The notes below the pieces were generated by a model. The model worked only from the letters and a program-made list of their open reading frames with translations. It was not told where the DNA came from and searched no databases. Position numbers and translations under genes: made by a program. From assembly GCA_018260615.1 (NCBI GenBank), contig JAGWDQ010000117.1, positions 1-26,603 on the forward strand: a stretch of 26,603 bases of DNA, given 5' to 3'. Within the stretch, counting starts at the first letter, position 1; each line of letters starts with the position of its first letter. This DNA comes from Candidatus Altarchaeum sp. GTDB lineage: Archaea; Altiarchaeota; Altiarchaeia; Altiarchaeales; Altiarchaeaceae. Below, piece after piece: positions 16,011 through 25,862 of the stretch.

Positions 16011-19000
16011 CTATTTCTTTCCTTCAACCTCCGCAATTATGCTCGCAAGTTCCTGAGGGTCATCAATTTCCAATGTGTTAGCATAACCGCTGACAATTGC
16101 CGCCGCACTCAATGCATCATATCTTTCGCCCCTGTCTGCTGCCTTTCTTGCTACTTCTAAATTTTTCTTTATTCCTGTCATATATGCCTCAAAGATAATT
16201 TTCTTTACATCAAAGCCCGCATCTCTCGCAATTTGTGAAAAATTTAACCGGAGTTCTTTTGAGTATGCTTCAGCCACCTTTAAATTTCCTAATGTTTCCA
16301 GATATTCTCCATTAGAGAGTGCATCAAAAGCATTCTTCAGTTTTGCCTTTATTCCGTCGGTATAAATTTCCTTCTGCATTTCTTCAAATTTCGAGGATAA
16401 ACCGGTACCTGATTTTTCCGCACAATATGCCACTTCTTTCAAACATCCGATTGCTTCGGTAAATTCATTGCCTGTAGCGTGATTTATTGCCTCTTTTTGC
16501 TTTACTTCGTATCCAAGCTTATAAACATCCAGCATTAATGTATCAACCTCCGGAGGAATATTTGTTGAAATTTTTTCCACGTATGATTTTATAGTGTAAT
16601 ATGCAAGAGTGGAATCATCGTACGACTTATTGTTAATTGCTTTTTTTAGCTCCTCTGTCTGCGCATAAATTCCGATTTTGTATGCCTGCTTCTCCAAATC
16701 ACTGACATCAACAGTTTTTCCCGCTTTGGCTGCATAGCCGTTTGCTGCAATAATATCTGCTATGGCATCTTCATAATTATTTTCGGCAATGTTCTTCTTT
16801 GCGGATTTTATCTTTTCTTCCGTTCCGATTTCAAAACACTTCTTCTTTAAAACATCTATTTCAGGCACTGATTTTCCGGTTTTATTCGCAAATTCCTTTG
16901 CGTTTTCCAGTGAAACATAACCGTCTCCAAAGTTCCCGGCACTTAGTGCTTCATTTGCTCCTTTAATCTTTACATTAACTCCTGTTTCATAGACATTTTT
17001 TGAAATTTCCGTTAATTTTTCAGGAAACGGAACATTCATTCTTGCCGATTGCCTCTCTGCTCCGCGAAGAGCAGTAATTGCGTCGTCAAAATTTCCTTCA
17101 TTTAAAAATTTATCTATTTCGGCAATTTTTGCATTAAGGAAAGCAACGGTAATTTTCTTTCTTTCTTCTAAAATTTGAGCCGCTGATACGCCAACCGTAT
17201 TGGCAAACGCTTCTGCTATACTCAACGCCGACAATCCGGATGCAAAGTCCCCGCTGTTGTATGCTTCATTTGCTTCTTTCAATTTTGACTCAATTCCTAA
17301 ATTTAATACCTTCTTCTTTAACTGATTTGGCTCTTCCTTTGCAGATAATCCGGAAAGATTTGTATAATAGGTTAAACCGTTAAATGCGGCAATCGCATCC
17401 CCGTAATTGCATTCATTAATTGCCTTGTTTATGTCTGATTCCTTTGAATTTATTACTACTTTATATGCGTCTTTCTTTAATGAGTCAATCATCATATCAG
17501 GCAATTGCATTCCCGCATTTTCAGCATATTTTTCCGCACTCTTTAAGGCGGCATAACATCCGGAATCATTTTGAGACATCAGGTCCTTTGCTTCATTTAA
17601 TTTTGCATAATATGCGAGTTTATAGCCCTCCGTCCACATACTATTAATATCCGGAAACTCTTTCTTAACATCAACATTTGCTTTCCTGCCATAAATTTCT
17701 GCACCTGCACATGATGCAAATACCTCGCTATAATCCTTGTGTTTTATTCCTTCTTCTCCTTCTTTGAGCTTTTCAGTAATTGCTAAGTTATACGCCTGCA
17801 TTCTCAGATCACCTAATTCTGTCGGAACATCTATTCCCGCTCTGCCCGCAAATAAATCAACAACATTACAACCACCGACTGCCGCTCCATAGTCCTTATC
17901 AGCTAATGCCTGCTTAACATCTCCGATTTTTGCATTAACACCAATTGAGTATGCGTTCTTTCTTAATTCCTCAATTTTAGAAGGAACCTCAATTTTGAGC
18001 TTTTCAGCATAACTCCTCGCTACGCTTAACGGCCCGATTGCACCTTCATAATCCTTTGTTTTTAAGGCATCTTCCGCATCTTTAATTTTTGCATTAATTC
18101 CGTTATTGTATGCCTTGTTTTTAACACTTTCAAAATCAGCAGGTAAAGGAACATTTGCTAATTTTGTGTGTTTTTCAGTAAGCGATAAATTAACAACCGA
18201 ATCGCCCGGGTCTGTTTCAAGTGTTTCTTTTGCTGCATTAAATTTGTAATTCGCAAATACCTCGTGTGCCTTTGGTGTTAATTCATCTATTTCCTTCGGA
18301 ACTGCCATGTTTGCTTTCTTTGAGTATGCTTCTGCAGTATTTAAAGCAGCATATCCGTCTGCATCTCCCTTATTTAATAATTCCTTTGCTTCATTAATCT
18401 TTAAATAACATGCAATTTCATAAGCATTCTTTCTTAACTCTTCAACTTCTTTCGGAATTTCTATATTTGCTTTCCTGGAATAAATTTCAACACCTGCACA
18501 TGCACCAAACGCATCACTATACTCTTTATTATTAACTGCCTCTTTTGCTTCCTTTAACTTTTCTTCGGCAGCTAATCTGTAAGATTGTAATCGTAAACCG
18601 GATAATTCTTTGGGAACATTTATTCCTGCTCTTCCTGCAAACAAATCAACAACATTACAACCACCGACTGCTGCACCGTAATCCCTATCCATTAATGCCT
18701 GTCCGACATCGGCAATTTTTGCATTAACACCAATTGAGTATGCTTTTTTCCTTAATTCTTCAACCTTTGCAGGAACCTTTATATTGCTCTTTTCTGCATA
18801 ACTCTTTGCCACGCTTAACGGCCCGATTGCACCTTCATAATCATTTGTTTTTAAGGCATCTTCTGCATCTTTGATTTTTGCATTAATTCCATTAGTGTAC
18901 GCCTTGTTTTTAACACTTTCAAAATCAGCAGGTAATTGGACATTTGCCAATTTTGCATGTTTTTCGGTAAGCAACAAAGCAACAACCGAATCTCCCGGGT

Positions 19001-25862: not shown

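Follow-up and report, generated by a model that had tools for sequence, protein, structure and literature searches.

The window analysed here, a 26,603-nucleotide stretch of DNA (positions 1 to 26,603 of contig JAGWDQ010000117.1 in assembly GCA_018260615.1) from the archaeon Candidatus Altarchaeum sp., carries a giant gene on the reverse strand (16011..25862; 3,283 codons plus stop, with no internal stop), whose product is composed from one end to the other of a tandem repeat of 53 residues. The protein (357.5 kDa, pI 6.2) is rich in Ala (15%), Lys (13.7%), and Glu (10.2%), with Leu also abundant. A hidden Markov model (HMM) of the repeat, built initially from the five sub-repeats within a single unit and then iterated on the giant protein, gives 62 matches that tile the chain, leaving gaps of just 1–2 residues in the core. 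Autocorrelation of residue identity is strongest at a spacing of 263 aa (0.68), whose harmonics appear at 526 and 789, with a further peak at 53 aa (0.19); the DNA gives peaks at 789 and 159 nt. A previous reading of the same stretch, made from the letters alone (the sequence-only reading), had proposed about 62 repeats of about 53 aa, arranged as 383 aa of degenerate repeats, 45 core repeats, and a further 530 aa of degenerate repeats; the total is confirmed by the HMM matches and the 53-aa autocorrelation, and the partition is right to within a few residues (374 aa, 45 repeats, and 542 aa). The source is a complete 26.6-kb contig of a 2.23-Mb metagenome-assembled genome (MAG) in 148 contigs, with a G+C content of 33% and a completeness of 87%, and the archaeal host that had been suspected is corroborated by its GatE, 82% identical to the GatE of Ca. 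Altarchaeum sp. CG2_30_32_3053.

The 62 matches fall into three regions. The N-terminal region (24741..25862, reverse strand; residues 1–374) holds seven of them, namely a weak, cap-like first match in a capping repeat-like segment followed by six degenerate 53-aa repeats; the core array (17640..24740, reverse strand; residues 375–2741) holds 45, and the C-terminal region (16014..17639, reverse strand; residues 2742–3283, 542 aa) consists of ten degenerate repeats. The core is made of nine tandem super-units of 789 nt (263 aa), super-unit k beginning at residue 375 + 263k, and each comprises five distinct 53-aa repeats, designated types A–E, in an order that is not kept in the degenerate repeats of the two termini. 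Among themselves the nine super-units are 79–98% identical in DNA, the last one (residues 2479–2741) being the most diverged at about 80%. Tandem Repeats Finder (TRF) reported nothing in the giant gene, its longest period (500 nt) being shorter than the 789-nt unit. The repeat follows the rough consensus A-Y-x-x-G-x-x-x-K-I-x-x-A-K-x-x-L-x-x-x-D-Y-x-x-A-x-x-A-L-x-x-A-E-x-Y-A-x-K-A-x-x-x-x-P-x-E-x-E-x-L-x-K, in which the conserved positions are mostly Ala, Leu, Tyr, Gly, and Pro, that is, core and turn residues. Although no Shine–Dalgarno-like motif is obvious on reading the sequence before the ATG, the start codon is considered right because the orthologues share a conserved N-terminus (M-G-T-...-E-L-F-x-x-G-E-Y-E-E-A-A-K-I-I-I).

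Structure prediction with AlphaFold2, applied to one super-unit (22374..23159, reverse strand; residues 902–1163/1164) with an alignment of 56 unit-length relatives, yielded a model of 263 aa with a mean predicted local distance difference test score (pLDDT) of 98.0 and a predicted template modelling score (pTM) of 0.85. The modelled repeat consists of a 24–27-residue helix, a turn of 3–5 residues at the conserved D/N-Y, a 15–17-residue helix, and a Pro-containing linker of 6–8 residues, the helices of the unit spanning residues 2–18, 23–37, 44–67, 73–89, 98–122, 126–142, 149–175, 179–195, 203–228, 232–248, and 256–262; the two helices, turn, and Pro linker per repeat that the sequence-only reading had drawn are thus reproduced with very high predicted confidence. 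In a model of two units (526 aa; pLDDT 94.8, pTM 0.61), the same helix pattern continues unbroken over the unit boundary. The Foldseek search of the PDB, likewise a check suggested beforehand for the 263-aa unit, returned only TPR, Sel1, LGN, and designed helical-repeat proteins; whole-model alignments to known structures give template modelling (TM) scores of 0.10–0.25 with root-mean-square deviations (rmsd) of 13–35 Å, or 15–35 Å for the Foldseek matches, and the match to the Sel1-type structure 6ok3 is local only (E 9e-4, TM score 0.13). An exhaustive VIA-align search over 48,161 chains found no global fold match, the best Z score of 8.9 lying under the tool's meaningful level for helical models. 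Local superpositions on TPR, MIT, and 14-3-3 structures cover 53–93 residues at 1.5–3.8 Å (Z 7–8.9): a stretch of one and a half repeats fits TPR domains at 1.5–2.5 Å, 53–65 residues can be placed at 1.5–2.8 Å on the TPR domains of CHIP, Hop, and Sti1 (Z 7.7–8.0) or on MIT domains, and the 14-3-3 match extends over about 90 residues. As in TPR proteins, antiparallel hairpins of helix A and helix B are packed in the model on the next helix A. TPR proteins form a right-handed superhelix of about eight repeats per turn, and whole-model alignments to them give the TM scores and rmsd values quoted above. By our reading of the models, the helices pack in the TPR manner, and the departures from TPR lie in the period, in helices of unequal length, and in the overall path of the array. 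Because the whole-model rmsd against compact TPR superhelices is very large, the models point to a far more extended shape of the array.

At the level of sequence, the repeat stands apart from the catalogued families, as had been claimed from the letters. Three segments of the giant protein, searched against Pfam, showed no match above the gathering score (only sub-threshold noise from PLA2_B, DUF4363, YfdX, and SbsC_spectrin-like) and no TPR family listed at E ≤ 1; NCBIfam likewise gave no match for the protein, and a profile search of PDB sequences with the repeat gave nothing significant (best E-value 0.48). That profile search did reveal a weak sequence echo of the TPR motif L-x-x-G-D-Y-x-x-A, with G-D-Y-x-x-A at the inter-helix turn, and in the small homologues P0017, P0019, and P0020 the TPR matches (TPR_21/18/14/19) are sub-threshold only. 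The period of 53 aa, established by the autocorrelation and the HMM tiling, is not the 34 residues of TPR, nor the 36–44 residues of Sel1-like repeats, to which Pfam also gives no match. HEAT repeats have a period of about 37–47 residues with two helices, and ARM repeats one of about 42 residues with three; the repeat here, with 53 aa and two helices, agrees with neither and shows no HEAT or ARM match, so that the earlier statement that its period exceeds those of TPR and HEAT/ARM is upheld. A strong match to a characterized repeat family, which had been named as the result that would overturn the claim of novelty, was found neither in Pfam and NCBIfam nor with the PDB sequence profile. The suggestion of a possibly new α-solenoid family accordingly stands in part: the period, the sequence family, the super-unit, and the predicted global geometry are new, but the fold class, TPR-like, is known. 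We rate the protein as a new repeat family and architecture inside the known α–α solenoid class.

The five-repeat cassette appears to be an old feature of the gene. The ratio of nonsynonymous to synonymous divergence (dN/dS) is 0.08–0.30 between units and 0.16–0.25 between the giant gene and its orthologues in a same-genus genome and another metagenome, low values that show a real gene under purifying selection. Synonymous divergence (dS) amounts to 0.05–0.37 among units 0–7 and to 0.6–0.72 between these and the last unit (unit 8), and such substantial synonymous divergence, combined with low dN/dS, indicates that the units are genuine, distinct evolved copies. Two more distant homologues, P0003 and P0005 (40–48% identical to the giant protein), align in register to the 263-aa unit and have their own period of 263–265 aa, the units inside each being 65–87% identical to each other versus 40–48% across lineages. 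When P0003, P0005, and a third homologue, P0007, are compared with the array, repeat types A, C, D, and E best match their own type in two or three of the three homologues, and type B does not. In addition, the last unit of the orthologue in another genome of the genus (G001) is nearest to the last unit here (0.85 vs. 0.78–0.81 for the others). From these matches of register, type, and last unit, we infer that the cassette is older than the split of the lineages and has been homogenized within each protein by concerted evolution, with the edges of the array escaping. The terminal regions are conserved between orthologues at 71–86%, the N-terminal region being 71% identical to the N-terminus of P0004 (dN/dS 0.25) and the C-terminal region 78–86% identical to its orthologues; this conservation would fit caps or specific binding sites formed by the degenerate terminal repeats.

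The host genome encodes the repeat protein once. Of 61 representative genomes searched across the phylum, those with the repeat are three of the four genomes of the genus (the host and two of the three others); it was not found in the 57 genomes of other families, most of the genomes searched being incomplete. The search of wider databases recommended by the sequence-only reading was made with a 34-repeat profile against 1.84 billion representative proteins and gave 65 matches, with giant forms only in Altiarchaeales and the rest mostly small proteins. About ten of the 65 are fragments of giants from Altiarchaeales; one of them, PKP54590.1, comes from a Candidatus Altiarchaeales HGW MAG, shares 42% identity with the giant here, and extends for at least 1,399 aa before its contig ends, and P0004 is a complete orthologue of 1,440 aa with both termini, just two core units, and 27 repeats. 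Most of the remaining matches (about 50) are small archaeal proteins of 100–340 aa with 2–5 copies of the 53-aa motif, several of them on clearly archaeal contigs beside fibrillarin, proteasome, or MCM genes, and a few of the weakest (e.g., P0012 and P0044) resemble generic TPR-like matches. No domain fusions were seen among the homologues, including a search for longer members with a wider repeat alignment, which added no new members, and no recurring neighbour of the small homologues, nor any hint of their function, was seen in four locus contexts (L017, L019, L029, and L030); the contigs of P0003, P0004, P0005, P0007, and P0008 are short and offer little genomic context. A word-based search for proteins of 1,805–5,746 aa recovered only the same protein from another sample, a contig search with the C-terminal region as the query gave no related loci, and literature searches on a giant or repeat protein in Altiarchaeum or on an Altiarchaeum metaproteome turned up nothing relevant. 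Three further observations were made on individual homologues. The P0005 lineage carries the final three repeats of the giant on an open reading frame (ORF) of their own (189 aa; L023:2646-3215, Joint Genome Institute (JGI) metagenome 3300010938), which starts 47 nt after the stop of an 864-aa fragment; the gene is there either interrupted by a stop or frameshift or naturally split. At the end of contig C17 of G001 (locus L009, 7959-8126), the frame of the giant contains two TAA stops within ~170 nt of the contig edge; misassembly where the repeats broke the contig is the probable cause. Two proteins of 300–341 aa (P0029 and P0031) share, after three repeats, a C-terminal extension of about 150 aa, possibly another uncatalogued domain, to which neither Pfam nor NCBIfam assigns a family.

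The reading that we favour, and to which we assign about even chances, is that the giant protein is a cytoplasmic, extended α-solenoid serving as a scaffold or spacer, with a length set by gain and loss of cassettes and with terminal repeats acting as partner sites. In this scheme, the chain would fold into one unbroken α–α solenoid of about 62 53-residue units, stay in the cytoplasm, and act as a long, fairly rigid structural element; unequal recombination would change its length by one cassette per step, and the diverged terminal repeats, conserved among orthologues, would be the likeliest specific partner sites. The α-solenoids typically rise by 0.8–1 nm per repeat, and the rod would be about 50–60 nm long only if that rise applies here. 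Like the length and the scaffold role, the location is our inference, and a cytoplasmic one is favoured by the contrast in N-X-S/T sequons between the giant protein (0.30 per 100 aa; 10 observed vs. 15.2 ± 3.3 in shuffles) and the surface protein encoded downstream (4.4 per 100 aa; 51 vs. 23.1 ± 4.0), by the lack of an export signal, and by the fact that most small homologues are without signal peptides. Hydropathy and inspection of the termini agree with the earlier claim that a signal peptide and transmembrane segment are lacking: there is no N-terminal hydrophobic stretch, the maximal Kyte–Doolittle value in a 19-residue window is 1.67 and that window includes two Glu, and the C-terminus shows no anchor or sorting signal. 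Several points weigh against this picture. A surface-protein gene on the same strand follows the giant gene after 68 nt; two of the small homologues, from Logan and ENA assemblies (P0015 and P0020), begin with a hydrophobic anchor after basic residues, so that in them the repeat module is probably displayed outside the membrane and would not be intrinsically cytoplasmic; the drop of pTM to 0.61 for two units makes the long-range geometry, and hence the rod shape, uncertain; and the figure of nine units may be a product of assembly, given the long exact repeats (up to 508 nt), the in-array differences between assemblies, the broken contigs, and the two units of P0004.

The last point leads to an alternative that we consider improbable, namely that assembly accounts for most of the giant size, with far fewer real cassettes (e.g., two, as in P0004) that short-read assembly would have threaded into nine. 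The MAG is fragmented into 148 contigs, and exact inter-unit matches of 300–508 nt exceed typical read lengths. A second JGI metagenome contig (3300029890), from the same strain, has essentially identical flanks and an ORF of exactly the same 9,852 nt, and all 103 differences between the two assemblies fall within the array, 62 of them being bases that another unit carries at the corresponding offset; this patchwork fits either gene conversion or a different threading of reads. Furthermore, in two other genomes of the genus the gene is spread over contigs that end within the array, as happens in other relatives, and P0004 has only two units. The number of nine core units is therefore not secure. 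Against an artefact, however, synonymous differences separate the units at many sites while dN/dS stays well under 1, which marks them as distinct copies rather than one copy re-used; the 9,852-nt ORF was obtained identically in length from two separate metagenome assemblies; and G001 carries at least ~4.7 units on two contig ends, and P0003 more than five units before its contig end. Even the shortest version, with 27 repeats, is all-repeat, so that the main finding holds in any case. In another reading, the array would serve chiefly as a multivalent platform of TPR-like grooves for peptides or proteins, recruiting many copies of one or several clients in the manner of an adaptor or chaperone, with stiffness and length of secondary importance. 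We hold this to be unlikely, although it is somewhat encouraged by the TPR-like local packing, by the best local matches being peptide-binding TPR domains (CHIP, Hop, and Sti1) and 14-3-3, by the weak echo of the TPR motif, and by the small homologues of 2–5 repeats, which look like stand-alone interaction modules. The conserved positions, on the other hand, are core and turn residues with no conserved polar groove evident from the sequence, the nine near-identical cassettes suggest bulk length over diverse binding sites, and the modelled global geometry gives no match to TPR superhelices. A platform of this kind and the scaffold or spacer are compatible rather than exclusive.

Altiarchaeum has a double membrane and unique grappling-hook appendages (hami), the assembly and anchoring of which are, to our knowledge, not understood. 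As an alternative to the cytoplasmic scaffold, the giant could lie outside the cell or in the periplasm as a matrix or appendage-associated protein that leaves the cytoplasm by a non-classical route and works with the downstream surface protein as an envelope-spanning or biofilm element; this too seems improbable to us. The downstream gene (12481..15942, reverse strand; 1,153 aa), which is given here as context, encodes a protein with a signal peptide, DUF11-like, MopE, and TSP3 Ca-binding repeats, a C-terminal transmembrane helix, and a cytoplasmic tail of about 65 aa. G001 retains the gene pair, with 61% identity, and the pair is present also on the second metagenome contig (3300029890); moreover, of the genomes searched, only those of the hami-bearing, biofilm-forming genus (PMC4975002) have the giant form, and the anchors of P0015 and P0020 would place the repeat outside the membrane in those proteins. 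Nevertheless, the giant protein has no signal peptide, transmembrane segment, or sorting signal, and its sequons are depleted, in contrast to their twofold enrichment in the surface neighbour. Because the spacer of 68 nt is AT-rich and includes a TATA-like stretch, co-transcription of the two genes is not assured. The giant of the P0005 lineage is followed by a gene that resembles, by eye and not by a family search, serine hydroxymethyltransferase instead of a surface protein, so that an obligate two-gene system is not supported. The purified hamus subunit is, in addition, a different, β-rich protein of 97 kDa (PMC4460559). Most doubtful of all is a role as a length-setting or anchoring rod of the hami or envelope apparatus, comparable to a nebulin- or tape-measure-like ruler, built in an archaeon from a new repeat and adjusted in length through its five-repeat cassettes; this very improbable proposal draws on the ~50–60-nm span that the rod would have if straight, which is near the scale of the hami (prickle spacing 46 nm, hook 60 nm across; PMC4187195), and on the restriction of the giant to the hami-bearing genus among the 61 genomes of the phylum.

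The downstream surface protein was also considered as a candidate for the hamus subunit and was rejected, the published hamus ORF being a β-sandwich protein with a surface-layer (S-layer)-like N-terminus and other domains (PMC4460559, PMC4975002). Comparison with G001 revealed in this neighbour an internal duplication of about 180 aa (residues ~104–280 vs. ~424–600, near-identical), and it also contains a long run of TSP3-type repeats. On the other side of the giant gene, the upstream region (25863..26140, reverse strand), read directly from the sequence, is AT-rich with short tandem repeats and presumably holds the promoter of the giant gene. Near the contig end, positions 26240-26560 contain short elements with a palindromic core, GATTTTCAA...TTGAAAATC / AAAAATC...GATTTTT, which are partly tandem (26-nt period, 3.5 copies in TRF) and may be regulatory sites or remnants resembling miniature inverted-repeat transposable elements.

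A 53-residue repeat that has no Pfam, NCBIfam, or PDB sequence entry and is predicted with near-maximal confidence offers an easy target both for the definition of a new family and for structure determination. Among archaeal giant proteins, most of which are β-rich surface proteins, one of about 360 kDa built solely from a single helical repeat is unusual. Should the protein prove to be a rod inside the cytoplasm, it would become a candidate cytoskeleton-like or spacer element of archaea, and the idealized, highly regular repeat could also interest protein designers. At the same time, the case calls for caution, since short-read MAGs give no trustworthy repeat count for such arrays unless long reads are added.

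The architecture of the giant protein is worth comparing with those of known helical and giant repeat proteins. Coiled-coil rods (Scy/FilP with 51-residue repeats, or of the crescentin type), whose helices run for hundreds of residues without a break in heptad or hendecad phase, were considered and rejected on the ground that the modelled helices are broken every ~25 and ~16 residues at the D/N-Y turns and Pro linkers, and a spectrin-like reading was likewise rejected from the lengths and breaks of the modelled helices. The N-terminal rod of SbsC (PDB 2ra1) and spectrin are, like the modelled array, elongated and all-helical, and SbsC gave a Z score of 7.4 over 177 residues and a sub-threshold Pfam match (E 0.39); however, the rmsd of 9.1 Å and a Z score below the helical noise level make this no credible fold match, and these proteins have three helices per ~106 residues, whereas the giant has two per 53. 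Ebh and Embp of staphylococci, with several thousand residues and tens of all-helical tandem repeats forming a long rod, provide the likeness of a giant prokaryotic tandem-repeat protein. Ebh is an extracellular protein with 126-residue triple-helix-bundle (FIVAR-GA) repeats, a signal peptide, and a membrane anchor; this repeat type is absent from the giant protein, as are a signal peptide and a wall or membrane anchor of a secreted adhesin.

The closest relatives in predicted local fold are the TPR and Sel1 proteins (CHIP, the TPR domains of Hop, LGN, and CTPR), which share the antiparallel two-helix hairpins stacked side by side. In distinction from them, the giant has a period of 53 instead of 34 or 36–44 residues, unequal helices of ~25 and ~16 residues, no Pfam match to TPR or Sel1, a superhelical geometry that probably differs (whole-model TM score and rmsd as given above), and about 62 repeats per chain in fixed five-repeat cassettes with no other domain. 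In the organization of its repeats, it rather recalls nebulin, in which 35-residue modules are grouped into seven-module super-repeats, and titin: a giant chain, a two-tier periodicity, distinct repeat types in a fixed order within super-repeats, and an array length that changes by whole super-repeats. The resemblance is one of functional class and analogy only, with no relation of sequence or fold, since nebulin is an extended helix bound to actin and no periodic partner filament is indicated here. Altogether, the giant protein of Altarchaeum appears to combine hairpins of the TPR kind with a nebulin-like order of typed repeats.

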